Positions 13,680 to 34,989 of a stretch of 64,000 nucleotides of DNA are shown here, in pieces. Origin of the DNA: Promethearchaeota archaeon (GTDB taxonomy: Archaea; Asgardarchaeota; Lokiarchaeia; Sigyniarchaeales; SOKP01); the NCBI GenBank assembly GCA_016839705.1, contig JAEOTR010000032.1, positions 1 through 64,000 of the forward strand, in the 5' to 3' direction. Under the pieces are notes generated by a model. The model was not told where the DNA came from and searched no databases. It was given only the letters and a program-made list of their open reading frames with translations. Position 1 is the first letter of the stretch; each line of letters begins with the position of its first letter. Both the position numbers and the translations under genes were made by a program.

Positions 13680-13698
13680 CGTAAACAAAGATTTAATT

Positions 13699-17088: not shown

Positions 17089-18000
17089 TTGGTCAATCCT
17101 CAAGAACAAGAGAATAAAGTTGGAGTTTCATCTGATAACATCATAAAAGAAGAGATTAATTTAAATTTATATATAAAATTACCGTTGTTTTATCTAATCT
17201 ATTTTTTCTCCTTCTTAATTCCCGGTATAATTTTTATGGTTTATATAATGATGTTTTATTTACCATACTTCCTTCAAGTAAGGAATTTCTTTAGTATTTT
17301 TATTAATATTCCCTCTCTTATTGCCTCTTTGACTTTACCTATCGTAATAATATCTTGTTACCTAATACATTTGCTTATTGTAGCATTAATCACACGGTGG
17401 TTTTGGAGACTCTCAGAAAAGCGATCTCCTTCAAAATCAGGTATTATTCCACGTAATATTCATAGTAAAACTTTAGATGCGTATCATTTTCGCAGTTTTA
17501 TTATAAAATATCCAAAAAATGCTTTCTCACGCGGACCATTTCCTTGGTTAACTAAATGGATGTTTAACTTTGTCGGAACAAATAAAATTGAAAAAGGCTC
17601 TGTAATTGAAGAACAATTAGCAGGGGATAGATTCGTAGAAATTGGTAAAAATTCTTATATCGGGACAAGTACCGCTATTAGTTCTCATGCTGTGGATGGT
17701 ATTTTTGGAAATATCTCATTTGCAAAAATCAAGATAGGAGACAATTTTACTAGTGCAGGATTTAACTGTGTTGCTCCCGGTGTGGATACTGGAGATAATT
17801 CATGGTGGTTACCAATGACAGGGGCAACAAAATACAATATTTTAAAGGGTGATAATTTTTATTTTGGAACTCCTCTCAGGAAGATATTTAAGAGGAAATT
17901 AATTGAATTTCTGCAAATCACTGAAGAAGATCTCAAGAGAGCCGAAGATCTAAATAAAATCCTAAATCAAGAAAATCAGGGAGATGATTCGGTACATTGA
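17089..18000 (+). CDS. Membrane-anchored left-handed beta-helix acyltransferase-like protein, module type A
   Basis: 2 TM, GIIPRN, hexapeptide repeats (VEIGKNSYIG, IKIGDN), SHAVDG, terminal YFGTPL. Confidence 0.8.
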   Translation: MVNPQEQENKVGVSSDNIIKEEINLNLYIKLPLFYLIYFFSFLIPGIIFMVYIMMFYLPYFLQVRNFFSIFINIPSLIASLTLPIVIISCYLIHLLIVALITRWFWRLSEKRSPSKSGIIPRNIHSKTLDAYHFRSFIIKYPKNAFSRGPFPWLTKWMFNFVGTNKIEKGSVIEEQLAGDRFVEIGKNSYIGTSTAISSHAVDGIFGNISFAKIKIGDNFTSAGFNCVAPGVDTGDNSWWLPMTGATKYNILKGDNFYFGTPLRKIFKRKLIEFLQITEEDLKRAEDLNKILNQENQGDDSVH

Positions 18001-18902
18001 GTGAAAAATCAAAAATTGAAGCTCCACTTGATAAAAAGAAAGATAGTACAGTTGATTATACTCTTGATTTTGTAACGAGTAGTGTGATAAGTCGAATTGG
18101 CTTAAAAGTCCTCGTTTTTTATGTACCAATACTATGGGCTTCTGGATTCATGACATCGGCCGTCTTTTTTGATCTATCATTGTTAATCAATAATTGGATA
18201 ATTACTATGTTTTTGATACCCGTATGGCTTTTTATATTATATTTCATATTTGTTTTTGGTATAGCTTTATTCGCAAGAGCTTTTCTACTAATAATAAATA
18301 TGATTCACAAACCTAAAGAAGGAGTTTTCAAAGCTGAAAAGGGGAATAAAGACTATGAATTTTGGAGATTGAGGATAGAGTTAAAAAAATTAGTGTTTTG
18401 GTTCATGAACAATGGTCCAATGCCGTGGATAGTAATGTGGGGATTCAGATGGATGGGTGTTAAAGTAGATTTTTCAAGTCATATGAATGATGCATGGGCA
18501 GATGGAGATTTTATTGAGTTTGGGAGAAACGTTACTATTGGTCAAGGTGCTGTTGTAATGAGCTCAATGGTTGTTGGTAAATATTTAATTATTAAGAAAA
18601 TTATTTTTGGAGATCATACCGTTATCGGTGGTGTTTCTAATATATCTCCAGGCACAGTTATTGGAAAGGAATCAATTATAGGAGTTTTTACAACTAGTAA
18701 TCCCAATCAACATATAGAGCCAGGTTGGGTATATCTTGGTATTCCTGCGAGAAAGTATAAACCTAATAAATATATAACAGAAAGACGAGATGTGATATAT
18801 CAAAAACTTGTAGAAGATGAAATTAAGTATGAAGTTAAACAAGACGTGAATATCGAAGAAGATAAGAAAAAACTTCTGAACAATAATCAGGAGGATAATT
18901 AA
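17997..18902 (+). CDS. Membrane-anchored left-handed beta-helix acyltransferase-like protein, module type B
   Basis: TTGA overlap with upstream gene; 2 TM, HKPKEG, EFWRLR, IEFGRNVTIGQGAVV, YLGIPA. Confidence 0.8.
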   Translation: MSEKSKIEAPLDKKKDSTVDYTLDFVTSSVISRIGLKVLVFYVPILWASGFMTSAVFFDLSLLINNWIITMFLIPVWLFILYFIFVFGIALFARAFLLIINMIHKPKEGVFKAEKGNKDYEFWRLRIELKKLVFWFMNNGPMPWIVMWGFRWMGVKVDFSSHMNDAWADGDFIEFGRNVTIGQGAVVMSSMVVGKYLIIKKIIFGDHTVIGGVSNISPGTVIGKESIIGVFTTSNPNQHIEPGWVYLGIPARKYKPNKYITERRDVIYQKLVEDEIKYEVKQDVNIEEDKKKLLNNNQEDN

Positions 18903-18904
18903 TT

Positions 18905-19759
18905 ATGTCTGTACCCTCAAGCTTAAAGGTTGGTCCAAATACTACCCTCATTCTGGAAAAAAAGAGATATATAATTTTTTACATTTTTTTAATGTGGATT
19001 ACTATTTTTACAATCCAATTTGAATTTTGGTTATATTGGATACTTTATGATTGGAAATTTATACACTTTATAATTTTTCTTCCACTCTTGATTATGATTA
19101 TGTATCTAACTTCTATTCTTGTTTCATTGGTTTTTGCCAAAATCTTTTTAGTTATAGTAAACCTGATTCATACACCCCGTGAAGGCGTTTTTCTCAGGCA
19201 TCGCTCAGACAAAGATTATAGATATTGGTCCCTAAGGAGTGCTATTAAGAAATGGCCCCTATGGCTCTCCCATAAATTTCCTTTTCCCTTTTTAGACAAT
19301 ATTTGCTTAAAAATGTTCGGGGTAAAAACTAAATTTTCTAACTCTCTCTTTGAAGGCTGGGTTGATTGTGAATTTATTGAATTTGGAAAAAATGTGGTAG
19401 TTGGTCAAAGTTCGGTAATTCAATCCTCAATTATTGTTGGGAATTTATTTATTATAAGGAAAACGATTATTGAAGACAATGTCATAATCGGTGCCCACAG
19501 TGTGGTTATGCCCGGAACACATTTAAAACGTAATTCTATCTTAGCAACTAGTTCTCTCACAACTGTTGGTCAAGAACTAGAAGAGGGATGGATATATCTT
19601 GGCGCTCCAGCGAAAAAATACAAGGAAAATGTTTACTTTGAAGAAGGATTAGAAGGAATAATAAGTCAGCTAAATGTGGTAAAATCTAAAGAAGAAGGGC
19701 ACTCCGAAGATTTTTATACAAGGAGAAAAGATAAAAAAGTTGAATTTGAACAATCTTGA
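18905..19759 (+). CDS. Membrane-anchored left-handed beta-helix acyltransferase-like protein, module type C
   Basis: 2 TM, HTPREG, DYRYWSLR, IEFGKNVVVGQ, IEDNVIIGAHSVVMPGT, YLGAPA. Confidence 0.8.
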   Translation: MSVPSSLKVGPNTTLILEKKRYIIFYIFLMWITIFTIQFEFWLYWILYDWKFIHFIIFLPLLIMIMYLTSILVSLVFAKIFLVIVNLIHTPREGVFLRHRSDKDYRYWSLRSAIKKWPLWLSHKFPFPFLDNICLKMFGVKTKFSNSLFEGWVDCEFIEFGKNVVVGQSSVIQSSIIVGNLFIIRKTIIEDNVIIGAHSVVMPGTHLKRNSILATSSLTTVGQELEEGWIYLGAPAKKYKENVYFEEGLEGIISQLNVVKSKEEGHSEDFYTRRKDKKVEFEQS

Positions 19760-19817
19760 AACAGACTTTTTTCGAATTACTTAGAATTTTAGAATAATCT
19801 CAAAATAAACGATTGAA

Positions 19818-20615
19818 ATGAAAAAAGTAGGTTATGTCCAAACAGCTCCTATTTTCGGAGATAAGGAAAAAAACTTTAATCAAATTGAAAACCTATTAGT
19901 TAATGTAAAAGCAGATTTACTTGTTTTACCAGAATTATTTGCCACAGGTTATACATTCATATCAAAGGAGGAAGCAATATCTTTCGCAGAAACATCAAAT
20001 GAAAAAACGTCTCAATTCCTTAAAAAAATCTCTAAAATGACCGGTGCTGTAATAGTAGGAGGATATATCGAACAAGCCGAAAATGAGATTTATAATTCTG
20101 CCATGATTGTCTCAAATGATCGAGTTGTTGATTCATATCGCAAAATACATCTTTATTATAAGGAAAAATTGTGGTTTTCTTCAGGAGATAAACCATTTAA
20201 AGTGTATGAGGTAAATGATATAAAAATAGGTGTTATGATATGTTTTGATTGGATTTTTCCTGAAACAGTACGAACTCTTGCCTTACTAGGAGCAGATATT
20301 ATAGCCCATCCCGCCAACTTGGTGCTTCCCTATTGTCAAAATGCTATGATCACGAGATCTTTAGAAAATCGAGTTTTTTCGATAACTTCAAATAGAATTG
20401 GGGAAGAAAATAGGGGAGAGGATCATTTTCAATTTACGGGTCAAAGCCAAATAATTTCTATTCATGGAGAGAATTTATCTTTAGCTCCTAAGGATGAAAT
20501 TTTTATAGAATTAGTTGATATAGACATTAAGAAGGCAAGAGATAAAAAACTGAATGAGTATAATAATTTGTTTAAAGATCGACGCCAAGATTTCTATTAT
20601 CAAAATGATAATTGA
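19818..20615 (+). CDS. Carbon-nitrogen hydrolase (nitrilase superfamily amidase)
   Basis: Glu-Lys-Cys triad: LPELFATGY, YRKIHL, ICFDW. Confidence 0.9.
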   Translation: MKKVGYVQTAPIFGDKEKNFNQIENLLVNVKADLLVLPELFATGYTFISKEEAISFAETSNEKTSQFLKKISKMTGAVIVGGYIEQAENEIYNSAMIVSNDRVVDSYRKIHLYYKEKLWFSSGDKPFKVYEVNDIKIGVMICFDWIFPETVRTLALLGADIIAHPANLVLPYCQNAMITRSLENRVFSITSNRIGEENRGEDHFQFTGQSQIISIHGENLSLAPKDEIFIELVDIDIKKARDKKLNEYNNLFKDRRQDFYYQNDN

Positions 20616-20632
20616 TAATTAGTTATTCTATT

Positions 20633-21535
20633 ATGAAAGTTGGATATCCTTGTATAAATTTAAGCTTAAATTGCAGGAGTAGTAGAAAATTTCGTTTGAA
20701 GAATTATTCAGAAAATAGGCTGATTGATACTATTCAAAATAATTTGCTGTGTTTGAAAAAAATTTTAGAGTTTAATTACGAAAATAAAATATTATTCTTT
20801 CGGATAACTTCTGATTTGATTCCTTTTGGATCTCATCCTATTATGACTTTTAACTGGCAAGAGTATTTTAAATCAGAGTTTAGAGAAATTGGGTTATATA
20901 TCAGAAAGAAAAACATGAGAATAACAATGCATCCTGGCCAATACACTGTTCTTAATTCTAAGAATCAAAGAGTTGTCGAAAATAGTATAAAAGAACTTCA
21001 ATATCATACTAAAATTCTGGAAGCCATTGGATTAGACTCTACTGCTAAAATAATTACACATGTTGGAGGTGTTTATGGGGATAAGAAAACCAGTATTCTA
21101 AGATTTATTGAGAGATATAAAAAACTTAATGAAAATATAAAAAACTATTATGTTATTGAAAACGATGATAAAAGTTATAACGTAAATGATACGCTAGTCA
21201 TTAATAGATCTACAGAAATACCAATTATCTTTGACTCTTACCATCATCACTGTTATAATTTAGGAGCTACAACTGAAGAAGCAATCAAAAAGGTATTTAT
21301 GATATGGAAAGAAAAAGATGGATTACCAATAATACATTATAGTTCCGAACATCCTCTTAAGGGTAAATGTAAACATGCAGAAGAACTTGATATGACAGAT
21401 TTTAGAAATTTTATAAAAAAGACAAATAAATATAATTTTGATATCATGTTAGAGATTAAAAATAAAGAGAAAAGCGCTATCTCTGCTATAGAATATTTAA
21501 TGAAAGATATACGATTTAATCAAAATAGAATATGA
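20633..21535 (+). CDS. uvsE: UV damage endonuclease
   Basis: GYPCIN, FFRITSDLIP, MHPGQYTVLNS, HVGGVYGDK, IENDD, D.YHH, MLEIK.KE. Confidence 0.92.
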   Translation: MKVGYPCINLSLNCRSSRKFRLKNYSENRLIDTIQNNLLCLKKILEFNYENKILFFRITSDLIPFGSHPIMTFNWQEYFKSEFREIGLYIRKKNMRITMHPGQYTVLNSKNQRVVENSIKELQYHTKILEAIGLDSTAKIITHVGGVYGDKKTSILRFIERYKKLNENIKNYYVIENDDKSYNVNDTLVINRSTEIPIIFDSYHHHCYNLGATTEEAIKKVFMIWKEKDGLPIIHYSSEHPLKGKCKHAEELDMTDFRNFIKKTNKYNFDIMLEIKNKEKSAISAIEYLMKDIRFNQNRI

Positions 21536-21555
21536 TTATATAAAATTTTAAATTA

Positions 21556-22035
21556 TTGATATCTATGAAGGTAAAAAAATTAGCACATATGAGCGAAAGA
21601 GAAATAAACACAACAATTAATTCTCATAACTTATGTAGAATTGCATTTATTGATGGCGAGTATCCTTATATCTCTCCTTTTCAATATGCTTATATAAATA
21701 ATGAATTGTATTTCCATTTTACTGATTATGGTAAAAAAAAGGAAATTCTTTTAAAAAATCAGAACGTATGTGTTTCGATTGAAAATTTTAAGTCTGATTT
21801 AAGCAGTTACTTCTTTATTTCGATACAAGGAAAATTAGAATTGGTGGAAGATGCTGTGCTTAAAAGTAAAACATTGAACCAAATGGCAGAATTAGCTCGA
21901 AAAAAATATTCAAAAAATTTTCTATTAGCTCATGGATTTGACAAAGAAGAAGAATGGGATATTTTAACCTCAAAGAATCAAACTATCTATAAGCTTAAAG
22001 TCTTCAATAATCCAATTGGTCTTAAATCTTCTTAA
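21556..22035 (+). CDS. Pyridoxamine 5'-phosphate oxidase-like (NimA-type) flavin-binding protein
   Basis: CRIAF..GEYPYISP, LYFH...GKK..L..N..VC. Confidence 0.8.
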   Translation: MISMKVKKLAHMSEREINTTINSHNLCRIAFIDGEYPYISPFQYAYINNELYFHFTDYGKKKEILLKNQNVCVSIENFKSDLSSYFFISIQGKLELVEDAVLKSKTLNQMAELARKKYSKNFLLAHGFDKEEEWDILTSKNQTIYKLKVFNNPIGLKSS

Positions 22036-22167
22036 AAAAGAAAATTGCACTTTAAAATTTGATAATTGAGATTATATAGATCCTTTATATTTTAAACAAA
22101 TAAGAAATAAATAATGATCTAATATAATTTCATTTAATTCTAATTGATATTTTTAAAATAAAAAAAA

Positions 22168-22566
22168 GTGAGTATTATTAATTGGGTAGCTGTTATAGTT
22201 GTGGGTTTAATTTATTTTGCGATACATTTTTTCTGGTATTTTCCCTTTGCTTTCGGTAATATGTGGTTAAAATTGGTAGGAAAGGAAAGTGAACCTAAAT
22301 CCAAGATCATACGAGACACAATAATTATGATACCAACTAGCATTATAACTGTTTTAGTCATCGCATATATGATAGAGGTAACAGGAATGACTGATATTGG
22401 TTCGGCAACGCTTTTGAGTTTAATTTTATGGGTAGGATTTGTGGCTACAATTGGTATCAATCAAAATAACTTCAATGATAGAGGTATAAAACTCTTTCTT
22501 CTGGAATATGGATTTTATTTAATAGGTTTTCTTATCGCAGGAATCATATTGGCAGCTTGGCCATGA
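22168..22566 (+). CDS. DUF1761 family membrane protein
   Basis: INWVAVIV, FWY.P..FG..W, W.GFV; 4 TM. Confidence 0.8.
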   Translation: MSIINWVAVIVVGLIYFAIHFFWYFPFAFGNMWLKLVGKESEPKSKIIRDTIIMIPTSIITVLVIAYMIEVTGMTDIGSATLLSLILWVGFVATIGINQNNFNDRGIKLFLLEYGFYLIGFLIAGIILAAWP

Positions 22567-22609
22567 ATTTCAAATCAAACTTTATAATTAAAAAATATCT
22601 TTCTTTTTT

Positions 22610-24259
22610 TTATGTTGTTAGACTTTCAACAACATATAAAGGCCATTTTTTGAGAATACCTTTTGATATTATTCCTTTTCTAACTTTCTCGAGCATTTCT
22701 TTTCGAGTGGCTAAAAAATCAATAGGAGTTTTATCGATTGGTATAATTTCAATATGGTTATTTAAAATACTTTTTTTGAAAGCTTCATCGTTAATGCACT
22801 TAGACAATAATTCCTTGTTTTTTGATAAATTTAAACATCCCTTTTTTCCATTTGATGGAATTAACAATTTTAGTTTATCCTTACCGTCAATATTATCTTT
22901 AATTAATAGTAGCGAATCAATGTCTACATTACAATTCCGATTTATGCAATAAATTAAACCACGAGGATTATAAATATCAAAACTATCGAAGTTAAAGAAT
23001 TCACCTACATAAACATGGTATTTTGAAGGAATTGGGATTTCTGGAATAATATGTATCGGGTACTTTAATTGAAAGTTTGAGCGAAGAATTTTACCTTCAA
23101 TTTGGGGAAGGGCTTCTGAATCAACCACATTTATGATATCTCCTATGTCTATATTACAAAAAACATTGGAATTGTTTAAACGTGAAATCAGCAAATTACC
23201 AATTTTTGATTCAGTTCGAGAAATTAATTGGAATTTTCCGTTACTCTCAATTGCAGGCAGTGTTAAGGGAAATACATATAGATTTCCCGTTCTTGAGAAT
23301 TCATACCCATTTTTCGTAATACTTGCCGCAAAAGGTCCTGTCTCCGAGGCAACATATAAATTTATGAATTTTTCTTCTCCTCTTTTCCAATTCATAAATT
23401 TTCGAATTAAATCCCAATCCTTTTCTGATAGAGAACTAATACTAAATACGATAGTGGCTTGAGAGAATTTTTTCGAAAGTAATTCTTGAATTTCATACGT
23501 TGCCGTTTTTATTCCCTTATTCTTTATTATTAAGAGAAGTTTTTCTAAAATGGGATCTTCATTATCTTTAATAGATTTCATAGTTTCTTGTATTCCACGT
23601 TGTAATTTTGCAATATCCGCCCACCCTAATACAGTAATAGCTGGAGCAGAAATCGTAGAGATTTTTTCTAGTGATAAGAGCTTAGCAATGACATCCAACC
23701 TTTTAGAATCTTTATATTCAAAAAATCTATATGACTCTGGTTTAATAATTGATAACATTACTCTTTGGGAAAATTCTGAAGAATAAAGAGAAATGTATTT
23801 TTTATCTTCATAAGTTTTTAAACCATCAATATTCAATCTCGAAGGAACAAAAATAACTACACTCGAGTGAGTGCTCAACCCACCCGACTCAAAAATGGCT
23901 TGCATTCCAGGGGCCCAATAATGTTTAACGACCCAATCTGACATAGGAAACCATTTCAGTGCTGAAATTTTTGAGTTAGTTGTTCCAGAGCTATGGCATA
24001 ATATTATTGGTTTCGATCCCTGAAAATTTGCTAGAAAATTATTAATATTTATTGCGAGGGCTTTTGAATCCGTCTTTTCTTTAGTAATTCTTTCAAGAAT
24101 GTCGCTAATAGATGATAAACCTGAATTTTTAAGGGTAAGTTCTTCGTATTCTTCTTTCGATGAAATATCTAGCCATTTCTTCCAATTTATAGATGGTATA
24201 TCAAAAAATTGTTTATTAAATATTTTTTGAATTTCTATATCAAAATCATATGCTCTCAA
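22610..24259 (-). CDS. GH3-family acyl-adenylate / acyl-acid amido synthetase-like protein
   Basis: ANL/GH3 motifs HSSGTT..K.FP, YVASETG, IDIGDII. Confidence 0.65.
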   Translation of the reverse strand: MRAYDFDIEIQKIFNKQFFDIPSINWKKWLDISSKEEYEELTLKNSGLSSISDILERITKEKTDSKALAININNFLANFQGSKPIILCHSSGTTNSKISALKWFPMSDWVVKHYWAPGMQAIFESGGLSTHSSVVIFVPSRLNIDGLKTYEDKKYISLYSSEFSQRVMLSIIKPESYRFFEYKDSKRLDVIAKLLSLEKISTISAPAITVLGWADIAKLQRGIQETMKSIKDNEDPILEKLLLIIKNKGIKTATYEIQELLSKKFSQATIVFSISSLSEKDWDLIRKFMNWKRGEEKFINLYVASETGPFAASITKNGYEFSRTGNLYVFPLTLPAIESNGKFQLISRTESKIGNLLISRLNNSNVFCNIDIGDIINVVDSEALPQIEGKILRSNFQLKYPIHIIPEIPIPSKYHVYVGEFFNFDSFDIYNPRGLIYCINRNCNVDIDSLLLIKDNIDGKDKLKLLIPSNGKKGCLNLSKNKELLSKCINDEAFKKSILNNHIEIIPIDKTPIDFLATRKEMLEKVRKGIISKGILKKWPLYVVESLTT

Positions 24260-24359
24260 TACATCTATTGATTACGTATTTATTTAAGATAAAGATTATC
24301 AAAATGAATTTTTAATTCAAAAATATTTTGTATATAATAATATACTAATATATTCCCAT

Positions 24360-24905
24360 TTATGGCGTGATTAAGGAACTCTTTGTCTTACTATATAATT
24401 CTCTTATTAGAGATTTGAATGCGTCTTCAACATTCTGACCCGTTTTCGCTGATGTATGGTAAAATCCTGTAAAATTATTTTTTTGAACAAATTTTATGAT
24501 CTTTTCATCAGTTAATCTATTATCATCAACCAAATCAACCTTATTTCCGAAAAGTGCAACAGGAATGTCTCCACAAAATTTCTTAATTTCTTTGAGCCAT
24601 TGCGCAGCATGTTTAAAACTATCTTTTCCAAATTTGTTTTCCTCTATGGAGAACACAATTATAGATGCCACGCTTGACCTATAAAATGCAGGTCGTAGAA
24701 AATGAAATTCATCTTGACCAGCTATATCCCAAAAAACTAATTCACAAAGATCACCCTCAATTTCTTCCTCATATTTAGAAAATTGTGCTCCTATAGTCTT
24801 AATGTATTCCTTCTGAAAACTTCCTTGAGTGAATTTTTTTATTAAGGATGTTTTTCCTACGAAACCATCCCCAATTACAGTAATTTTAAATTTGAATTTA
24901 TTCAT
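24360..24905 (-). CDS. Rab-like small GTPase
   Basis: GDGFVGKTS, YIKTIG, WDIAGQ, GNKVD, TSAKTG. Confidence 0.95.
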   Translation of the reverse strand: MNKFKFKITVIGDGFVGKTSLIKKFTQGSFQKEYIKTIGAQFSKYEEEIEGDLCELVFWDIAGQDEFHFLRPAFYRSSVASIIVFSIEENKFGKDSFKHAAQWLKEIKKFCGDIPVALFGNKVDLVDDNRLTDEKIIKFVQKNNFTGFYHTSAKTGQNVEDAFKSLIRELYSKTKSSLITP

Positions 24906-25027: not shown

Positions 25028-25816
25028 ATGGTTGCGATAAAGGAAAGTAGAATGGAAGTATTATTTGGATTTTTTGGGGCTTTATTCATTTTAGTTATGT
25101 TAATAATCTCAATAATTCTTTCTCCAGGATATTCCCCTTTAACAAGTACTATAAGTACACTTGGAGAAAGAGAAGCAAAAACGTTGTTTAGCATTGGATT
25201 TGTTGTAGCGGGTTCATTATTAATCCCTTTTTATATCTATCTGAAAAATGAATTAGTTTATCTGAAAAACCGTCTTAGAAAAATAGCGACAGGTGTAGCT
25301 ATTTTTTCCAACATGTGTATTGCTTTAGTGGGAATAATTCCTGATAAGGATTACCCCGGTGCTTTTCTTGCGTTTCATGCATTTGTAGCGGGTGTGAGTT
25401 TTATAGGAACCTCTATTTATATTGTGTTATATAGCCTTTTAATGTACTTAGGTCCAAAGTCTACCATGTATAAGGGTCCACAATTTAAAAAATATCTTTC
25501 TTACTATGGCTTTTTTGTAGGAATAGTATTTGTAGTGTGGTTAACCAACCCGATAAATCCACCTTTAGAATGGGCAGTAGCAATACTCATACTTATTTGG
25601 ATTTTAATTACGGCATTACAGTGTCTTTCATTTAAATTTTCTAAAATCCCGGGGGTATATTATAAACGATCTCAATATCCTGAAAAAATAAAACTGTTTA
25701 AAGACGCGATCCATGTTTTAGAGAATCTAGAAATGGGAGATGAGCCAATTTTGGACACATTAAAAGACAATATTGAATATATCGAAAGTCAAATGGAAAA
25801 AAACCAAAACAAATGA
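25028..25816 (+). CDS. DUF998 / Frag1-DRAM-like membrane protein
   Basis: PGYSP...ISTLG, GIIP, H..VA, LEW in 5-6 TM. Confidence 0.7.
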   Translation: MVAIKESRMEVLFGFFGALFILVMLIISIILSPGYSPLTSTISTLGEREAKTLFSIGFVVAGSLLIPFYIYLKNELVYLKNRLRKIATGVAIFSNMCIALVGIIPDKDYPGAFLAFHAFVAGVSFIGTSIYIVLYSLLMYLGPKSTMYKGPQFKKYLSYYGFFVGIVFVVWLTNPINPPLEWAVAILILIWILITALQCLSFKFSKIPGVYYKRSQYPEKIKLFKDAIHVLENLEMGDEPILDTLKDNIEYIESQMEKNQNK

Positions 25817-26820
25817 AAGCGGCAGTATTTGATGGAGAAGAATTGGAAATAAAAACTGTGGCAGATCCTAGAATATCAGATACAAAAGTATTAATTAACG
25901 TTAAAAGCGTTGGATTATGTGGAACCGATATAGCTATAATTAAAAAATCTTTACCTAGTCCAACACCTATAATTTTAGGGCATGAATTTGCAGGTGATGT
26001 AGTAAAGATAGGAGATAATGTTGATCCAAAATGGCTTAATAAAAGAGTGACGTCTGAAATAAATACTAATATTGATTTTAGCTGTTTCTACTGCAAAAAG
26101 GGGAAATATACTCAATGCGTATCAAGAAAAGCATTAGGGATAGATATTGATGGGGCCTTAGCTGAATATATAGCATTGGAATCATATTTACTTCATGAAA
26201 TCCCAGATTCAATCTCATATGATGATGCCACATTCATCGAACCATTAGCAGCAGCATATCAAATATTCGAAACAATGCCATTGGATGCAAATGATAAAGT
26301 GATGGCTATATTTGGGCTTGGGAAATTAGGATTGCTAATTACACAAATAGCATTGCTTAAAGGTCTAAAATTAATTGTTGTTGATAGTTCTCATAAAAAA
26401 CTAAAATTAGCAAAAAAACTTGGTGCGCAAAAAGTACTTAACAGATTTGATGGTCCTTACGTTCCTGATTGGATAAAAAGTCTTACAAGGGGGCTAGGTG
26501 CTGATATAACTATAGACGCAACAGGCAACCCTCTAGCAATAAAAGATGTAATTGCTTCATGTAGAACCCTTGGAAAAGTACATTTAAAAAGTACGCATGG
26601 TCTTGACACTTCTATTAATTTAACTGATGCCATTGTGCGCGAGTTAACGCTCTATACTAGTAGATGTGGACCATTTGATAAAGCTATACAAGGATTAAAA
26701 GATGGAACGATTGATGTTGAAAAATTGATTTCTAAAAAATATCCATTAAAGGACATTGATAAAGCTATAGATTTTAATAATATCTCCCAAGACCATATTA
26801 AAACAATTATTCATATATAA
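25813..26820 (+). CDS. Zinc-dependent medium-chain alcohol dehydrogenase
   Basis: GLCGTD, LGHEFAG, CFYC..C, EPLA, GLGKLG; ATGA overlap. Confidence 0.9.
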   Translation: MKAAVFDGEELEIKTVADPRISDTKVLINVKSVGLCGTDIAIIKKSLPSPTPIILGHEFAGDVVKIGDNVDPKWLNKRVTSEINTNIDFSCFYCKKGKYTQCVSRKALGIDIDGALAEYIALESYLLHEIPDSISYDDATFIEPLAAAYQIFETMPLDANDKVMAIFGLGKLGLLITQIALLKGLKLIVVDSSHKKLKLAKKLGAQKVLNRFDGPYVPDWIKSLTRGLGADITIDATGNPLAIKDVIASCRTLGKVHLKSTHGLDTSINLTDAIVRELTLYTSRCGPFDKAIQGLKDGTIDVEKLISKKYPLKDIDKAIDFNNISQDHIKTIIHI

Positions 26821-26965: not shown

Positions 26966-28795
26966 ATGGTTAATGATGAAATACCAGAGCCTAAATCAGA
27001 AACCAAGAATAATTTTATACGGGAAGACATACAGTTTCAGTATTTCTGGTATTTATTCATCTTTTTTACTATTTACCTTACATCATATATTGTTCCAGCC
27101 TTTTTATTTATGAGTTATATCTTTCTCTTTTTCTTACCTAATTTTTTAGACACATCTAGTTTCATAGCACTATTTACTGAAATAAAGCCAATTCTAGCAT
27201 TAGTATCAATGCCCTTAGTTATTATAGGCTGTTATCTTATTCGATTATTTTTTGTTGGGCTAATGACACGATTTTTTTGGAGATTGACTGAAAAAAAGTG
27301 TCCCAGTAAAGATGGAATAATACCAAGGAATTTTCCCAGTAGAACTCTTAATTATTATCATATTCGAAGTTTCTTGATAAAATATGGAAAGAATACTTTT
27401 ACTAAGGGAGCTTTCCCTTGGTTAAGCAATTGGTTATATAATTTTGTTGGTTCAAGTGTGATAGGAAAGGGATCAACATTTGAGGAAAGCATAGGCAACG
27501 AAAAGTTTGGAATTGTCGGAAAAAATTGTTATTTTGGTGCTGGTGCTGCTTTGGCGACTCATCTGGTTGACGGAACTTTTGGAAATATAAATTATTTCCA
27601 TGTGAAAATTGGAGATAATGTTACCGCTGCTGCGGGAAACCTAGTTGCCGCAGGATCAGAGGCATATGATAATTCTTATCTACTACCGATAGCTTCTGCA
27701 GGAAAACATAGCTTATTAAAAGGAAATAATTACTATTGGGGAATTCCATTAAGGAAAATATTTAGAAAAAAAACTATGGAATTTTTAGATTTAACACCAA
27801 AGGAATTAGAGATAAATGCAAATATCGTGGGATATACTGATAAAAAAGTATTGGAGAAATTAAAAAGTGAGAAATCTTTAGAGCCACCTGAGGAAATCAT
27901 CCGCACCGAAACAGAAGAAAGTCTAGATAATGAGAAAGAAATTGATATAAATGATTTAAGTGAAGAAGATTTAGCCTTAGATTTCACAACAAGTAGTGCA
28001 ATTTCACGAGTGAACATAAAGTTTTTAGTAGTTTACATTCCAATTTTTTGGTTGTCTGGTATGTTGGATACGATAATTTTTTATACATTTATTTCCTTGG
28101 TAAGCAATAAATTTGTAATGATATTCTTCCTTCCAACGATTATTATTATTATGTGGTTCATTTTTATATTAGGGTGTTTCTTTTTCAGCAAATTATTCCT
28201 AGTCTTAATTAACTTAATACATAAACCAAAAGAGGGAATATTTAGAGCGGAAATTGGAGATACTGATTTTGAATTTTGGAGCTTGCGTACCGAAATAAAA
28301 AAAATAGTATTATGGCTTTTACGTAATTGGCCCCTTCCTTGGGCGGATATATTAGCATTTAAATTTTTCGGAGTAAAAATGACCTTATCAAGTTCATTAT
28401 ATGATTCTTGGTGCGATAGTGAATTTATAACATTCGGGAGAAGAGTCTTAGTTGGACAGGGTGTGACGATTATGTCTTCAATGGTGATAGGTAAATACTT
28501 AATAATTAAGAATGTTATATGCGGTGATTATTCACTTATAGGAGGTCATTCCACAATCGCACCAGGTACAATTATAGGGGAGGATACTTTTGTCAGTGCT
28601 CTTTCTACATCTGTGTATTCTCAGATCCTTGAACCGGGATGGATCTATATTGGAGTCCCTTGCATTAAACTAAAACCAAACAAATATGCTGAATCTCAAA
28701 GAGAAATATTAGTTAAAAGAGACGTAGATGAAGAGAGGAAATTTGAGATTGAACATGAAGTTAACATTGATGAAGATAAGAAAGATCTCTTATAA
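26966..28795 (+). CDS. Fused A+B membrane left-handed beta-helix acyltransferase-like protein
   Basis: N-half matches 17089 protein (GIIPRN, THLVDG, GIPLRKIF); C-half matches 17997 protein (LDFTTSS, HKPKEG, EFWSLR). Confidence 0.82.
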   Translation: MVNDEIPEPKSETKNNFIREDIQFQYFWYLFIFFTIYLTSYIVPAFLFMSYIFLFFLPNFLDTSSFIALFTEIKPILALVSMPLVIIGCYLIRLFFVGLMTRFFWRLTEKKCPSKDGIIPRNFPSRTLNYYHIRSFLIKYGKNTFTKGAFPWLSNWLYNFVGSSVIGKGSTFEESIGNEKFGIVGKNCYFGAGAALATHLVDGTFGNINYFHVKIGDNVTAAAGNLVAAGSEAYDNSYLLPIASAGKHSLLKGNNYYWGIPLRKIFRKKTMEFLDLTPKELEINANIVGYTDKKVLEKLKSEKSLEPPEEIIRTETEESLDNEKEIDINDLSEEDLALDFTTSSAISRVNIKFLVVYIPIFWLSGMLDTIIFYTFISLVSNKFVMIFFLPTIIIIMWFIFILGCFFFSKLFLVLINLIHKPKEGIFRAEIGDTDFEFWSLRTEIKKIVLWLLRNWPLPWADILAFKFFGVKMTLSSSLYDSWCDSEFITFGRRVLVGQGVTIMSSMVIGKYLIIKNVICGDYSLIGGHSTIAPGTIIGEDTFVSALSTSVYSQILEPGWIYIGVPCIKLKPNKYAESQREILVKRDVDEERKFEIEHEVNIDEDKKDLL

Positions 28796-28888
28796 ACAAT
28801 TTATCGGAAAAAACGCAAAGAGCGTTGCCGCTATTACTGTTCTACGATAATATTATCATAACATTTAAGATGGAATGTAATTAAACCA

Positions 28889-29560
28889 TCATTTTAATAA
28901 TGTTCTCAAATATCTTAACCATTTATTGCGAGGCGCTTTAGCTTTATACCAATCATAATTGGAATCATCACCAAAAGGTTGATACTCCGTGTAATAAGCT
29001 TGGTCTTCATTAATATTGTCAATCTGTTGCTCAAGTAAAGCTATAAGGTTTTTTATGTCCTCTTGATGTTGACGAGATAACATGAATTTATCTCTTTCAG
29101 TAATATTTTCACTAGGATATTTACCGTTAAAGGAAAGAGTCAAAGAATGACTATAACGTTTAATGGTTTGTTTCAAATTCGGATGGTTTAATACGATTTC
29201 TCTCGCTCTATCTTTATATTTTGAAGTACCATCAAACATGATGTCGAGACATGTATGGTAGTCTCTCAAATCAATCATGACCGTCTCTATTAATTCATTC
29301 CATGTAATTCCATAATTATACCGACAGGCACGTTGATATATCCCTCTAAGAGCCTCTAATGAGTCGGAATTATTTATTTTTACAAGAGCATCAATGATTT
29401 GCGTATCCCTTTCCAAGTTACATAATTGGAAAAGCACTCTAACAGATTCTAAATCCCCTTTTTTTATTAATTTATTTATTTCTTTTTTCCTTGTTTTTGG
29501 GCTTGCTTGCCTTAGCTTATTAAACTTCTCTAATTTCTTGCCAGTAAAAAATCTATGCAT
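28889..29560 (-). CDS. Hypothetical helical protein (weakly HEAT-like)
   Basis: 223 aa ORF; IIDALVKIN..DSLEAL. Confidence 0.6.
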   Translation of the reverse strand: MHRFFTGKKLEKFNKLRQASPKTRKKEINKLIKKGDLESVRVLFQLCNLERDTQIIDALVKINNSDSLEALRGIYQRACRYNYGITWNELIETVMIDLRDYHTCLDIMFDGTSKYKDRAREIVLNHPNLKQTIKRYSHSLTLSFNGKYPSENITERDKFMLSRQHQEDIKNLIALLEQQIDNINEDQAYYTEYQPFGDDSNYDWYKAKAPRNKWLRYLRTLLK

Positions 29561-29663
29561 TGATACTCTCTATTTCTTTGATTTTAATTTTTATATTCAA
29601 TTTTAATAAACTTTAGATTAATTTAAGTATTAATGAAATATTTGGTGAAATTCAAAAATTATT

Positions 29664-29840
29664 CTAATCTAATTGGTTTCCACAATTTTCACAATATTTA
29701 TTAATTTTTAAGTTTTCAGAGCCACAATAATGACAAATTATTTTTTCTGTTTCTTGTCTAGGTCTTGGCTGATATATAGGTTCTGGTTGATACACAGGTT
29801 GTGCTTGGTAAGATGGGAGTGCTGGGTTTTTTTTAAATAT
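29664..29840 (-). pseudogene. Zinc-ribbon mini-ORF or gene remnant without a canonical start
   Basis: Hand translation IFKKNPALPSYQAQPVYQPEPIYQPRPRQETEKIICHYCGSENLKINKYCENCGNQLD*; bounded upstream by in-frame TGA. Confidence 0.6.
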
Positions 29841-30063
29841 TCATATTTAAATAAAAAATTTCAGGAATGGTAAATTCAGCGTCTGATTTCAATTTCGAAT
29901 AACATTTCATATAAAATTTGATTCTTTATTTTAATTTAGAAAAAACGTAAAATATCTCATAGTGCTAAAATATTTCAAGGAAAATATTGTTCCTATAGTA
30001 AAATTTTTTTTTAAGACAACTTTTAAGAGAATATGTATCGAAAAACTTTGTATCGAAATATTG

Positions 30064-30071
30064 GAAGGTGA
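30064..30071 (+). promoter_or_regulatory. Shine-Dalgarno-like site GAAGGTGA
   Basis: Archaeal GGTGA core 6 nt before the in-frame ATA at 30078. Confidence 0.55.
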
Positions 30072-30077
30072 AACAAA

Positions 30078-31622
30078 ATATCTGTTAAAAATCTTCCATT
30101 AACGAGAGAAAATATACCGTTTGAACGACTTTTTAACCCACGTGCGATAGTAATAATTGGTGTTTCAAAATTAAACCCATCTGGAGCAACTCAATATGTT
30201 CATGCATTGAAGGGTGCTCAATTTCCGAATCCAATTTATCTTGTAAACCCGAAATATATTGATGAGGATTTAATGGGATATAAGTTTTATGATTCTATAT
30301 CTTCAATACCAGATGAAACACCAGTTGATCTTGCTATAATAGCGGTACCTGCACAATTAACTCCTTCGATTATTGAGCAATTAGGTAAAAAAGGAGTTTC
30401 ATTTGCCCACATATTTAGTAGTGGATTCTCTGAATTAGATACTGAATTTGATAAAAAAGGTAAAAAACTAGAAGAAGAACTAATCAGAAATGCTTCAAGA
30501 TATGGAATACGTATCCTCGGTCCCAATTGTATGGGCATAGTTGCTCCAAAATCAAATCTTACTTTCTTAATGTCATTTAGGTCAATGCAAGAAGCAAATA
30601 AAGAATTCGATTCAAAAAATATTGAAGGTTTAGACGATCTTGGAAATTTAATAAATAACGGGCAAGTAGCTTTTATATCACAAAGTGGGGGGATTGCATT
30701 CACCCATGGAATGCTTTCACATTCATTAGGTTATAGTTTTTCAAAAATCGTCTCCCTTGGTAATCAAATTGATTTGGATTTACTTGATTTTCTTCGGTAT
30801 TTTAAAGATGATCCAGAGACAAAAATAATATCAATGTATATTGAAAATATTAAAAGAGAGGGGAATGAGTTTGTTCGATTATTAAAAGAGACAACTGCTA
30901 AGAAGCCTGTAATTATATGGAAAGGTGGTATTTTCCAAACGGGTCATCAAGCAGTTATGAGTCATACAGGGGGATTAGCGGGTAATTATAAAATGTGGGA
31001 ATCAATGGCATGTCAAACTGGAGTAATTCTAGTAGATAATTTTGTAGAATTAACAGATATGATACAAACATCTCTTACTTATCCATTTCCACAAACCTTA
31101 GGTACAGCAGTACTATCTATGAGCGGGGGTACAGCGGTGGAAAGTACTGATGAAGTTGAACGGAATGGTTTACTTATGCCTCTTTTAACGCAAGAAGTGA
31201 CACAAAAAATTAACCAATTTATCCCAGAAATTAACTCTAATTTAAAAAATCCGTTAGAATTCGGAGGAAAGAACAGTTTAGAACATACTGTTAAAATTAT
31301 CAAGATGTTGGGAGAAGAACCTCAATTTTCCTCCATAATAATGGCAAGTTCTCCAGAATATCTTGTTTTTCGAAGAGGAAATAGCTTGGATGATTATATT
31401 AAAGCAATTTCCAATGCTTTACCTCCTCACTCGGGCAAAATACTATTGTGTGTTGCCAGCAGTATGAATATGTTTGAGCAAGGGATAAAAATGAACCTCG
31501 AATTTAGTTCCAAATCTCTATCCAATGGATTTGTAGTATATCGTTCTACAGCAGCAGCAGCAAAATCTTGTTATCGCTGGTGGAAATACGGAAAGTATTT
31601 AGAAAAAAGAAAGATTGTTTAA
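30078..31622 (+). CDS. ADP-forming acyl-CoA synthetase alpha-type subunit (CoA-binding and ligase domains)
   Basis: LFNPRAIVIIGVS (upstream of the track start 30207), VDLAIIAVP, ILGPNCMG, FISQSGG, SLGNQ.D, phospho-His SHTG; start inferred at ATA 30078. Confidence 0.85.
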   Translation: MSVKNLPLTRENIPFERLFNPRAIVIIGVSKLNPSGATQYVHALKGAQFPNPIYLVNPKYIDEDLMGYKFYDSISSIPDETPVDLAIIAVPAQLTPSIIEQLGKKGVSFAHIFSSGFSELDTEFDKKGKKLEEELIRNASRYGIRILGPNCMGIVAPKSNLTFLMSFRSMQEANKEFDSKNIEGLDDLGNLINNGQVAFISQSGGIAFTHGMLSHSLGYSFSKIVSLGNQIDLDLLDFLRYFKDDPETKIISMYIENIKREGNEFVRLLKETTAKKPVIIWKGGIFQTGHQAVMSHTGGLAGNYKMWESMACQTGVILVDNFVELTDMIQTSLTYPFPQTLGTAVLSMSGGTAVESTDEVERNGLLMPLLTQEVTQKINQFIPEINSNLKNPLEFGGKNSLEHTVKIIKMLGEEPQFSSIIMASSPEYLVFRRGNSLDDYIKAISNALPPHSGKILLCVASSMNMFEQGIKMNLEFSSKSLSNGFVVYRSTAAAAKSCYRWWKYGKYLEKRKIV

Positions 31623-31684
31623 TAAAAAAGACCACCTTTATGTATTCAATCTTACTTTTCTTTTCAGTTTTAATAATACTAATT

Positions 31685-32074
31685 TTATTGGAGTCCTAAT
31701 TCTTGTTTTAAAAATCTCGATAAATCTTCGCATGTTTCTTTTAATTCAGTTTCATCCTGATAAAATAGATGAGGTCTAGGACAATCATTATCATAAATAC
31801 AATTATTTTCTTGAAAATTATAAATTAATGGGTAAAATCTACATCCTTGAGGGCGATATTCATATATTTTACATTCCTTTGAAAGAGAGTCTAAGAAAAT
31901 GCAGTGATCCTCATTATTTTTTAATTGAAAAAACCCATCTCTATTTTTAAATACGAAATCATTTTTTTGTAGATTTTTAGTGGAATTTTTCATAATTCTA
32001 TTAATATCACTCTCAGAAAGAATCATTTCAGTTCTTAAACAACATTCTCCGCAATTTTCACACTTATTTTTCAT
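31685..32074 (-). CDS. YkgJ-family cysteine-cluster protein
   Basis: CENCGECC, CIFL, CKIYEYRPQGCRFYP. Confidence 0.9.
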   Translation of the reverse strand: MKNKCENCGECCLRTEMILSESDINRIMKNSTKNLQKNDFVFKNRDGFFQLKNNEDHCIFLDSLSKECKIYEYRPQGCRFYPLIYNFQENNCIYDNDCPRPHLFYQDETELKETCEDLSRFLKQELGLQ

Positions 32075-32209
32075 ATATTTTTATTAAAAGTATTAATCAT
32101 AAATTTAAAGGGATAATAAATATCTTATAAAGTATATTAAGAATCAATTGCTTTTTAATTGAGTAAATGTTAATGAGTTGCATAGTATAACAATTTTCAA
32201 TGAAAACTT

Positions 32210-34084
32210 ATGGTAACAATGAGCGAACAAGTTGACGAAAGCGAACCATCGAATTTGGATACTCCTGAAAATCAAGTTTTAAAAGAAGAGGTTAAACTTC
32301 AATTTTATTTGTATATTCTTATCTTTAGTTTTATTTTTTATAGTTCATGGGTTATCCCTGGTGTCTTCTTTTTTTGGTACGTTCTTCAAGTTTTTCTTCC
32401 TAATTTCTTAGAAATTTCTAATTTTATATTACTTTTTACAGAGCCTAACTCTTTAATTGCATTCCTCTTGATGCCCATCGTTCTCATCGGATGTTACCTA
32501 CTTCATCTAATCATTTTGGGGATATCAACTAAAATTTGTTGGAAAATTTCTGAAAAGATTTCCCCATCTAAGCCCGGAGTAATACCCAGGAACATTCGAA
32601 GTAAAGCCGTCAATTATTATCATATTAGAAGCTTTATGATCAAATATGGCAAAAATTCATTTACAAAAGGTGTTTTTCCGTGGTTAAGTAATTGGTTCTT
32701 TAATACTGTAGGCTCAAACAAAATTGGTAAAGGCACAACTCTAGAAGAATCTGTAGGAATGGATAAATTTATTGAAATTAAAAAAAATTGTTATATTGGA
32801 GTTAATAGTACTCTAGCCAGTCATCTTATTCAAGGAATTTTTGGAAATATCTCCTATTTTAAAATTAAAGTAGGGGATAATGTTACAGCAGCCGCTATGA
32901 GTCAAATTGGACCAGGCTCTGAAATAAATAATGATTCGTTCCTACTCCCCCTAGCTTCTGCAACTAAACATAGTGTCTTAAAAGGAAAAAACTATTATTG
33001 GGGAATTCCCTTAAGAAAAATATTTAGAAAGAAAACTATAGAATATTTAGACCTTACTCCAACAGATTTGCAAAAAAATGAGAATATTTTGGGGTATACA
33101 GATAAAAAACTTCTAAAACAACTAAAGGCAAAAGAGATTCAAGAAACGTTGACTAACGAAGCTGTTAAAATAGAACAGGAAATTTCTAACTTGGATGAGA
33201 AAAGAATTGATGTTATTAAATTAGAAAAACAAGATTTAGCAATTGATTTCACTACTAGCTCTGCTATCAGTAGAGTTAATTTAAAATTTTTAGCAGTCTA
33301 TTTACCAATTTTCTGGTTAGCAGGCTTATTAATCTCAATATTATGGTATTGGTATTTGCTTGATCAAAAGTGGATACCTATTTTATCATTTCTACCTCTT
33401 ATTTTGTTTGGCTCAATATATCTTTTCATTTTAGCATGCATACTTTTCAGCAAATTACTCTTAATTCTTATAAATTTAATACATAAACCAAAAGAAGGTA
33501 TTTTTAAAGCAGAGATTGGGGATACCGACTTTGAATTTTGGACTTTAAGAACTGAATTGAAAAAAATCGCATTGTGGTTTATGCGAAATTCACCACTTCC
33601 ATGGACTGACGTAGTATCATTAAGATTATTTGGTGTGGACATGGATGCTTCAAGTCATCTAAATGATGCATGGTGTGATGCCGAGTTTATTAAGTTTGGG
33701 AGAAAAAACTTAATCGGACAAGGAGCTACGATTATGTCGTCCATGGTGGTAGGCCGATATTTGATTATAAAAAAAGTTGTATGTGATGATTATATCATGA
33801 TTGGTGGTCATACTACGATTGCACCGGGGACGATCATGGGTAAAGAATCCGTGATCGGTGCTATTTCTTCTACTACAGTAAATCAGGTGTTAGAACCAAA
33901 TTGGGTATATTTTGGAATTCCTGCTATTAAATTAAAAGAAAATAAGTATGCAGAAGAGAGGAGAGATGTAATTTTAAAGCGTGATGTGGATGAGGCAAAA
34001 AAATTTGAGATAGAACATGAAGTAAATATAGATGATGATAAAAAAGATTTAATTAAAAAAGAAAAAGAGGTAAAAGAAGTATGA
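32210..34084 (+). CDS. Fused A+B membrane left-handed beta-helix acyltransferase-like protein
   Basis: Close paralog of 26966..28795 (GVIPRN, SHLIQG, DFTTSSAISRVN, HKPKEG, EIGDTDFEFW). Confidence 0.82.
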   Translation: MVTMSEQVDESEPSNLDTPENQVLKEEVKLQFYLYILIFSFIFYSSWVIPGVFFFWYVLQVFLPNFLEISNFILLFTEPNSLIAFLLMPIVLIGCYLLHLIILGISTKICWKISEKISPSKPGVIPRNIRSKAVNYYHIRSFMIKYGKNSFTKGVFPWLSNWFFNTVGSNKIGKGTTLEESVGMDKFIEIKKNCYIGVNSTLASHLIQGIFGNISYFKIKVGDNVTAAAMSQIGPGSEINNDSFLLPLASATKHSVLKGKNYYWGIPLRKIFRKKTIEYLDLTPTDLQKNENILGYTDKKLLKQLKAKEIQETLTNEAVKIEQEISNLDEKRIDVIKLEKQDLAIDFTTSSAISRVNLKFLAVYLPIFWLAGLLISILWYWYLLDQKWIPILSFLPLILFGSIYLFILACILFSKLLLILINLIHKPKEGIFKAEIGDTDFEFWTLRTELKKIALWFMRNSPLPWTDVVSLRLFGVDMDASSHLNDAWCDAEFIKFGRKNLIGQGATIMSSMVVGRYLIIKKVVCDDYIMIGGHTTIAPGTIMGKESVIGAISSTTVNQVLEPNWVYFGIPAIKLKENKYAEERRDVILKRDVDEAKKFEIEHEVNIDDDKKDLIKKEKEVKEV

Positions 34085-34989
34085 GTGTTCCTAATACAAT
34101 GCGTGTTGGTCCTTTTACACCAACAATATTGGCAAAAAAAAGATATTTAATATTATACATTTTCCTTATTTGGGCGAGTATAATTCCACTATTATTAGAG
34201 TTTTGGATTTATTGGCGTTTTTTATGGTATTTACCAAGTCCAGTTCATTTTTATACTTATCTACCTCTGTTAATATTTTTGATGTATGTTACGATTGTAT
34301 TTTCAGCAATATTTTTTACCAAGATACTTTTGGTAATAATCAACGCTATTCATAAACCAAAAGAGGGGACATTTTTAAGGATCCCTGCAGATAAAGATTT
34401 TCGATATTGGAGTCTGCGGAATACAATTAAACGGTGGCCAGTTTGGCTTGCACATAGATTTCCTTTTCCAGGGATTTTAGATAATATATGTTTTAAAGCT
34501 TTCGGGGTTAAAACTAAAATCTCAAATTCTTTATTCGAAGGATGGGTTGACACAGAATTTATTGAATTTGGAAAAGATGTTGTGGTGGGACAAGGAGCAA
34601 TCGTTCAATCAGCAGTAATTATTGGGAATCTTCTGATTATTAGAAAGACAGTTATTGAAGATAATATAAGAATAGGTTCCCATGCTATAGTTATGCCAGG
34701 CACCCATATTGGGCATAACTGTATCTTAGCTGCCAATAGTGTAACTACGGTTGGGCAAGTGCTAGAGCATGATTGGATTTATGTTGGCATTCCTGCTAAA
34801 AAATTCAAAGTTAATTATTTCTTTGAAGATGGTCTTGAAGATAAATTAGGCGATGTGGAAGATGTAGAGGCATTAAGAAAGCGATATGAAGAAATATATA
34901 CAAAACGCTATGATGAGCTCACCCATAAAGAACGAAAAGAATTAAAGAAAGAGAAGAAAGAAGAAGAAAAAAAGAGATGGGAACCTTAG
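34081..34989 (+). CDS. Membrane left-handed beta-helix acyltransferase-like protein, module type C
   Basis: ATGA overlap; MSVPNTMRVGP, DFRYWSLR, SLFEGWVD; paralog of 18905..19759. Confidence 0.82.
   Translation: MSVPNTMRVGPFTPTILAKKRYLILYIFLIWASIIPLLLEFWIYWRFLWYLPSPVHFYTYLPLLIFLMYVTIVFSAIFFTKILLVIINAIHKPKEGTFLRIPADKDFRYWSLRNTIKRWPVWLAHRFPFPGILDNICFKAFGVKTKISNSLFEGWVDTEFIEFGKDVVVGQGAIVQSAVIIGNLLIIRKTVIEDNIRIGSHAIVMPGTHIGHNCILAANSVTTVGQVLEHDWIYVGIPAKKFKVNYFFEDGLEDKLGDVEDVEALRKRYEEIYTKRYDELTHKERKELKKEKKEEEKKRWEP

Follow-up and report, generated by a model that had tools for sequence, protein, structure and literature searches.

What do three neighbouring loci of an Asgard archaeon, which together encode eight copies of one small membrane module, build in the membrane? 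We analysed a 64,000-nucleotide stretch of a Promethearchaeota archaeon (hereafter the window; positions 1 to 64,000 of contig JAEOTR010000032.1, assembly GCA_016839705.1), in which six genes between positions 17089 and 34989 encode a module composed of a transmembrane (TM) hairpin followed by a left-handed beta-helix (LbH). A first-pass annotation had read these genes as a split, carrier-less relative of the C-terminal domain that epsilon-poly-L-lysine synthetase (Pls) carries, with the three module types A, B and C rebuilding a unit of six TM helices and three LbHs. Our analysis supported such a unit, like that of Pls and of the delta-poly-L-ornithine synthetase PosA, as the most likely arrangement on the grounds of gene order, cyclic fusions, a structural model of a C-A-B fusion, the rank of the Pls-type model TIGR02353 among the matches and the lack of a carrier. 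We conclude that one A, one B and one C module probably join in the membrane as a heterotrimeric LbH acyltransferase that has only one active site.

Module types, gene order and fusions

The genes of the three loci are as follows, all on the forward strand.

17089..18000, forward: A1, A-type module of 303 aa, with TM hairpin, SPSKSGIIPRN linker and His-bearing LbH (..ISSHAVDG..)
17997..18902, forward: B1, B-type module of 301 aa, with TM hairpin and HKPKEG linker; its LbH has Ser at the His position (MSSMVVG)
18905..19759, forward: C1, C-type module of 284 aa, with TM hairpin and HTPREG linker; its LbH has QSSIIVG at the His position
26966..28795, forward: A2-B2 fusion of 609 aa (A ~26966-27865, B ~27941-28795, acidic linker between), an orphan without an adjacent C gene
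32210..34084, forward: A3-B3 fusion of 624 aa (A ~32210-33124, B ~33215-34084), with invariant H205 in A and HKPKEG in B
34081..34989, forward: C3, C-type module of 302 aa, whose ATG overlaps the A3B3 stop by 4 nt

Open reading frames, translations and BLAST confirmed that these six genes carry eight homologous modules in three types, as the first-pass annotation had described. Each module begins with two long hydrophobic helices (by hydropathy), which a brief conserved turn connects to a helical linker; hexapeptide repeats follow, and G.P.[RK]K forms the C-terminal end in every module of the window genes. Matches to Pfam Hexapep and Hexapep_2 sit in the C-terminal halves. In B and C the turn after the second TM helix reads HKPKEG or HTPREG, whereas A has SPSKxG[IV]IPRN there, and both the linker and the terminal GxP motifs noted previously were present in the translations of all window modules. 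All-against-all BLAST showed identities within types of 47-55% (A1/A2/A3), 48-64% (B1-3) and 58% (C1/C3), compared with 35-40% between B and C and only 20-27% between A and either of them, making A the divergent type. Profile-profile comparison by hhalign (A-B 99.1%, A-C 98.8% and B-C 100% probability) indicated that all types are homologous, with the A-type match to the others (99%) spanning the second TM helix through the LbH. Adjacent genes overlap by 4 nt (A1/B1 and A3B3/C3) or are separated by 2 nt (B1-C1), and the A1/B1/C1 and A3B3/C3 junctions are translationally coupled. The window has ~30% G+C and contains Ras-family GTPase genes, the nearest relatives of its proteins are named Promethearchaeota or Lokiarchaeota, and the module family is currently annotated only as 'DapH/DapD/GlmU-related' or hypothetical.

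We then assigned a type to each module in 20 loci retrieved from relatives. The order was A then B then C, either split (A|B|C) or part-fused (AB|C), with three exceptions, one having C3 ahead of A3B3 and two an extra A copy; the A-B-C order pointed out in the first-pass annotation was thus near-invariant across these loci. In one relative's genome A1 and B1 are fused at locus 1, and the orphan AB2 gene is conserved in relatives and duplicated in some. Other genomes yielded C-A fusions (~520-540 aa, in many Loki metagenome-assembled genomes (MAGs)), an F-D fusion (P0203) joining two of the further modules described below, and C-A-B triple fusions of 797 aa (P0128), 805 aa (P0277) and 808 aa (P0314), all from Promethearchaeota or Lokiarchaeota MAGs. 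In the alignment of these proteins (alignment A4), which was checked column by column, AB fusions matched modules 2-3 of P0128, while CA fusions matched its modules 1-2. AB, CA, CAB and F-D all follow one cyclic order. No form of the AB protein fused to adenylation or thiolation domains was found, and none longer than 1093 aa.

A single cyclic order would be expected if three unlike subunits formed a ring of fixed handedness. It is not predicted if each type forms its own homotrimer, a membrane-anchored acetyltransferase with its own substrate, and the genes are adjacent through tandem duplication. Classical LbH acyltransferases are homotrimers, and neither the orphan A2B2 nor the gene sets of a sister family make neat trios, both of which would suit independent homotrimers. 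Gene order is nevertheless fixed, fusions always join unlike types in the cyclic order, and a two-module fusion alone cannot make a symmetric LbH trimer; together with the histidine distribution and the fold of the C-A-B fusion given below, these observations led us to regard independent homotrimers as very unlikely.

One histidine among three modules

The modules carry the hexapeptide repeats and the LbH fold of the acyltransferase superfamily. Foldseek returned maltose and galactoside O-acetyltransferases (MAT and GAT; Maa, LacA) as the nearest solved folds of the LbH parts, with a probability of 1.00. These enzymes are soluble homotrimers that have three identical active sites and small-sugar acceptors, and they differ from the Asgard modules in lacking a TM hairpin and heteromeric asymmetry. 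The A-type profile aligned an invariant His with His115 of Escherichia coli GAT (counted from the alignment), the catalytic residue of that enzyme, and with its equivalent in MAT; the loop and the 'IGDNV' coil that follow this His also matched GAT, as did the C-terminal G.P motif. This column holds the only invariant His among the conserved columns of the A-type LbH. All A modules have it (61/61), as against 0/59 for B and 0/45 for C, the residue being Ser in 58/59 B modules and Ser or Ala in 43/45 C modules; no His is invariant in the LbH of B. The counterpart of the GAT general base would accordingly be present in type A only, and from these alignments we infer that the A-type His is catalytic while B and C are predicted to be non-catalytic. 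In LbH acyltransferases the active sites form where subunits meet, and because only A supplies a general-base His, a complex of the three types would have one working active site. That B and C have lost this His and yet remain highly conserved is a further point against independent homotrimers.

We extended this comparison with a joint alignment of the Asgard modules, their bacterial stand-alone relatives and three annotated Pls/PosA synthetases (from Rhodococcus and Azospirillum plasmids). His was present in 3/3 bacterial single-module proteins (from Methylophaga, a gammaproteobacterium and Deferrisomatales), whose existence speaks for independent homotrimers. It was present only in module 2 of the bacterial stand-alone triples, only in module 3 of the three true Pls/PosA synthetases (QTHL) and only in the A-type module of the C-A-B fusion. 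Three-module forms, whether fused or split, are thus all down to one His-bearing module, with the exception of a set of modules named D, E and F that lies outside the window.

Loss of the His from two of three subunits would also be expected of a membrane scaffold with little or no catalytic role, whose LbH trimer would act in assembly or anchoring as the gamma-carbonic-anhydrase (gamma-CA) heterotrimer does on complex I of plants and protists. Complex I gamma-CA subunits were indeed among the sequence matches of C3 in the PDB, and the mitochondrial heterotrimer (CA1/CA2/CAL) may be an apt analogy, since it too is an LbH heterotrimer attached to a membrane, is built from diverged paralogues and has mostly degenerate active sites. 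It differs in its zinc-dependent carbonic-anhydrase chemistry and in having no N-terminal TM hairpin module. The invariance of the A-type His and the retention in all types of the C-terminal GxPA[KR]K-type segment, which is typical of CoA-dependent MAT/GAT enzymes, argue against a scaffold, and the three-His zinc site of gamma-class carbonic anhydrases was not seen in the conserved columns. We therefore consider a mere scaffold highly improbable.

To these alignments we added an AlphaFold2 model of the C-A-B fusion P0128 (797 residues, alignment A4), which folded as a single confident unit with a mean predicted local distance difference test score (pLDDT) of 84 and a predicted template modelling score (pTM) of 0.85, again unlike what independent homotrimers would lead one to expect. 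Its three modules share one layout, in which the TM hairpin and the PKEG turn lead straight into a strand, followed by 2-3 helices and an LbH, and the model shows the short, regularly spaced strands typical of beta-helix coils. The same module layout of TM hairpin, strand, helices and LbH has been described for a model of the PosA terminal domain (PMC10522769).

Taken as a heterotrimeric acyltransferase, one module each of A, B and C would assemble into a membrane-embedded, pseudo-symmetric complex in which six TM helices bear three LbHs packed side by side on the cytoplasmic face. B and C would be structural or substrate-binding partners of A. The candidate acceptor would be a molecule that is associated with the membrane or passes through it, such as a lipid, a lipid-linked glycan or a growing chain, and the paralogous sets A1B1C1, A3B3 with C3, the orphan A2B2 and F+D+E would differ in specificity.

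Relation to Pls/PosA and to bacterial stand-alone proteins

The C-terminal domain of Pls and PosA (TM1-6, C1-C2-C3), enzymes that make epsilon-poly-L-lysine and delta-poly-L-ornithine, resembles the Asgard set in its three repeats of TM hairpin, strand plus helices and ~five-turn LbH, and in having a candidate catalytic His in one of three modules. Its repeats have been predicted to form a pseudo-trimer that sits on a bundle of six helices (PMC10522769). The Asgard modules differ in being separate or pairwise-fused genes, without an adenylation or thiolation domain in the window. Comparison with TIGR02353, by which the first-pass annotation would have judged kinship to Pls, gave a divided answer. 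Among NCBIfam models, TIGR02353 ranked first or second for B and C modules (28.9-48.7 bits; top match for B1, 31.9 bits), with residues 358-578 of A2B2 aligning to model positions 8-223 from the TM hairpin through the end of the LbH, and A1 gave no match. These scores are far under the curated cut-off of 423.1 bits, which no match in the whole genome reached. At low score this model is triggered by any LbH protein, with matches in 14/14 control genomes, and for the LbH part it scored no better than generic acetyltransferase models. The best match to a non-Pls model was NF058585, an acetyltransferase for archaeal-type lipid in Bacillus.

Whole-module profiles matched Pls modules with 97-98% probability and bacterial stand-alone triples with 99%. 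When profiles were cut at the start of the LbH and then compared, the TM/linker part of Asgard B/C matched that of the bacterial triples (75% probability, E = 2.5e-5), and the bacterial triples matched Pls (73%), whereas direct comparison of the Asgard B/C TM/linker part with that of Pls gave no alignment (hhalign 0.1%). Outside the LbH, likeness to Pls is thus transitive only, through the bacterial stand-alone triples. Scores to the Asgard B/C modules by hhalign were likewise higher for bacterial stand-alone proteins (92-128) than for Pls (45-81), and module by module, profile scores within each lineage exceeded those between lineages. In a maximum-likelihood tree (IQ-TREE), all Asgard modules fell on one side of a branch with 99/97 support, with the A type forming a clade (100/98); Pls modules m1, m2 and m3 formed their own group, and the bacterial triples grouped with single-module forms. 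With the caveat that this module tree is unrooted and the modules are short, tree and profile scores together indicate that the three-module state arose separately in each lineage. The Asgard modules were not found to be orthologous to C1, C2 and C3 of Pls, and a 'split Pls' origin, in which the system would be a fission product of Pls, was rejected because the Asgard modules stand apart from Pls modules in both analyses. From sequence comparison, the Asgard system looks like a parallel elaboration of the 2TM-LbH module that is architecturally convergent with the Pls terminal domain.

The bacterial relatives comprise carrier-less three-module 2TM-LbH proteins, with three paralogues in a single Omnitrophota MAG (L035/L037/L038) and one in a Planctomycetales MAG (L036), and single-module versions of ~228 aa (Methylophaga, Deferrisomatales); further bacterial loci were L039-L041. 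It seems that neither the triples nor the single-module versions have been described. The triples (including P0210, P0212 and P0227, the last fused to a short-chain dehydrogenase/reductase (SDR)) share with the Asgard set the same module, the lack of a carrier and one His in three, and bacterial stand-alone forms lie nearer than Pls to B and C of the Asgard set. They differ in being one gene with three near-equal modules, much less diverged among themselves than Asgard A is from B/C, or a single module that presumably forms a homotrimer and so would have three His.

These comparisons bear on whether the Asgard complex could be a carrier-independent polymerase of the Pls kind, in which ABC would repeatedly condense an activated monomer and extrude the resulting polyamide or polyester through the bundle of six helices. 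The monomer would be an aminoacyl- or hydroxyacyl-CoA, or else an adenylate that a neighbouring enzyme supplies. The six-TM, three-LbH architecture, the occurrence of one His in three as in true Pls/PosA and the rank of TIGR02353 all speak for such a polymerase, which we nonetheless judge unlikely given that the Asgard modules are independent of Pls modules in origin. Genomic context in bacteria is a second difficulty, for the Planctomycetales stand-alone triple adjoins genes for a glycosyltransferase, a GMC oxidoreductase and an SDR, not parts of a non-ribosomal peptide synthetase. The SDR and glycosyltransferase context of the bacterial triples leans instead to lipid or glycan modification and away from peptide polymerisation.

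Donor, neighbouring genes and distribution

Considering that the first-pass annotation had seen no carrier (thiolation) domain in the window, we searched the 93%-complete genome for the PP-binding domain (PF00550) and for 4'-phosphopantetheinyl transferase (PF01648); neither had a match anywhere, so the statement holds genome-wide. As no carrier protein was found, the most economical donor for the heterotrimeric acyltransferase would be a free CoA thioester, the usual donor of LbH enzymes, and we regard it as most likely. The missing carrier and transferase are unfavourable to a polymerase, as is the rarity of aminoacyl-CoA as a donor. In the 38 residues that follow TM2 there are 8-9 Lys+Arg against 2-5 Asp+Glu, and by the positive-inside rule this basic segment suggests that the LbH would lie in the cytoplasm, where CoA esters are.

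Genes near the three loci that bear on the substrate or donor, or that are the most constant neighbours, are listed here.

22610-24259, reverse: 549-aa protein with invariant SGTT, Y.ASE (YVASE) and GD (LGD) motifs
25813-26820, forward: Zn-dependent alcohol dehydrogenase, close by in 18/20 relatives
30207-31622, forward: ADP-forming acyl-CoA synthetase, alpha part, flanking locus 3
31685-32074, reverse: CxxCxxCC (PF03692) protein, divergently oriented upstream of A3B3 in 19/20 relatives
35512-37341, reverse: long-chain acyl-CoA synthetase (NF006134, 717 bits, over cut-off), flanking locus 3

An acid-activating enzyme at each locus was considered and rejected, since the acyl-CoA synthetase and the ADP-forming CoA ligase adjoin the system in 0/20 relatives, which also counts against a polymerase supplied by a neighbour. 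The 549-aa protein gave no Pfam, NCBIfam or PDB-profile match, even at E = 10; some of its neighbours in ESM feature space have GH3 or AMP-binding domains, and it may be a divergent acyl-adenylate-forming enzyme. Its gene lies near the LbH loci, between them, in 13/20 relatives, as would suit a polymerase fed by a GH3/ANL-like enzyme. It was, however, found in only 45/68 genomes of the same family (missing from 23) and 0/7 of the sister family, and it occurs in 3/6 genomes of an unrelated family without the LbH system; a distribution that does not track the system led us to reject it as an obligate partner. The PF03692 protein and the alcohol dehydrogenase are the most constant neighbours, and synteny of this kind among close kin is weak evidence.

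Other genes in the surroundings were recorded as well. The flanks of locus 1 (16123-16944, 19818-22035) encode a DUF1295 membrane protein on the upstream side and, on the downstream side, a nitrilase-superfamily hydrolase, UvdE and a PNPOx-like protein; only 7-10/20 relatives keep each of them. A Ras-family small GTPase is encoded between the LbH loci (24360-24905, reverse), and on contig C81 a Gtr1/RagA-like GTPase (L013:9528-10472) is encoded 2 kb downstream of the D-E pair; as eukaryote-like signature proteins, the two GTPases are typical of Asgard archaea. At 13152-14106 (forward) there is a toxin-antitoxin pair, an MntA-type nucleotidyltransferase (PF18765) followed by a HepT-like RNase (PF01934).

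Three extra modules lie outside the window.

G000:C81:101801-103387 (L013:5802-7388): D (282 aa) and E (245 aa), back to back, with a 531-aa metallophosphoesterase gene next
G000:C46:40671-41432 (L014:5671-6432), reverse: F (253 aa), A-like (33% identity) and His-bearing

In the module tree, D and E take a basal position in the B/C group. The idea that a GDPD gene beside module F encodes its partner was rejected, as the adjacency is kept in 1/23 loci; an MFS transporter adjoins F in 12/23 loci, in mixed orientation. In public data we found 676 C3 homologues, the top 120 at 72-94% identity, and this number together with the recurrence of the arrangement in relatives indicates that the locus pattern is not due to chance. 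Searches with C3 matched 68/68, 7/7 and 1/1 genomes in three families of one class, and a class-level sample queried with module F found F in 1/2 genomes of the third family. Among the other Asgard genomes, only 1/224 searched had a C3 match. This sole outlier is a contig from a different Asgard family (G241:C82:1364-7938) on which the GH3-like gene precedes A, B, C and a second A, the arrangement seen in Lokiarchaeia; it is probably mis-binned, or else a transfer, as the bin has 7% contamination. Genomes of the main family have at least 7 strong module matches each, the expansion amounting to about 11 modules per genome. F orthologues cover the same range as the C3 family, including the sister family, and F+D+E may be the older set.

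Several observations weigh against an A-B-C heterotrimer that has only one active site. The AlphaFold2 model of A3B3 itself scored low (pLDDT 62.6, pTM 0.55), its TM helices and B LbH being confident and its A-type LbH reaching only pLDDT 30-45, and trimeric packing is inferred from the pTM of a fused homologue, 37% identical to C3, and not from the window's own proteins, for which a 1:1:1 stoichiometry would follow by analogy. A2B2 has no adjacent C, although it may borrow C1 or C3. Both D and F carry the His. Some LbH N-acyltransferases (AntD, QdtC) work without a catalytic His, and by this precedent B and C need not be inert. In the sister family, whose genomes include a closed one of 4.4 Mb, A stands beside a single B/C-type module, together with a D/E-like pair and F, suggesting that in the ancestral complex A may have been joined by two copies of a single partner, from which B and C separated later. 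Finally, no conserved neighbour pointing to a substrate was seen in the 20 relatives' loci or the 23 module F loci.

For the polymerising end of Pls-type synthetases there is no established mechanism, and our sequence and fold searches found no solved structure. The Asgard set is a natural 'exploded' analogue of it, in which the three subunits are separate genes, each of which can be expressed, mutated or swapped alone. Repeated independent loss down to one His-bearing module in three lineages (Asgard, the bacterial stand-alone triples and Pls) is a testable claim on mechanism. We think it quite unlikely that ABC is a carrier-free membrane machine specific to Lokiarchaeia and independent of Pls whose activity resembles that of no described archaeal enzyme, be it polymerisation of CoA monomers to a secreted polyamide or polyester or ester-acylation of isoprenoid glycerol lipids or lipid-linked glycans; ester-acylation of lipids or glycans, if true, would bear on the question of mixed membranes in the archaeal relatives of eukaryotes. 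Given its presence in every genome searched of two families (and in 1 of 1-2 genomes of the third), its expansion and its high conservation, the family probably has an important role in the envelope or lipid biology of those cultured archaea that are related to the eukaryotic ancestor.

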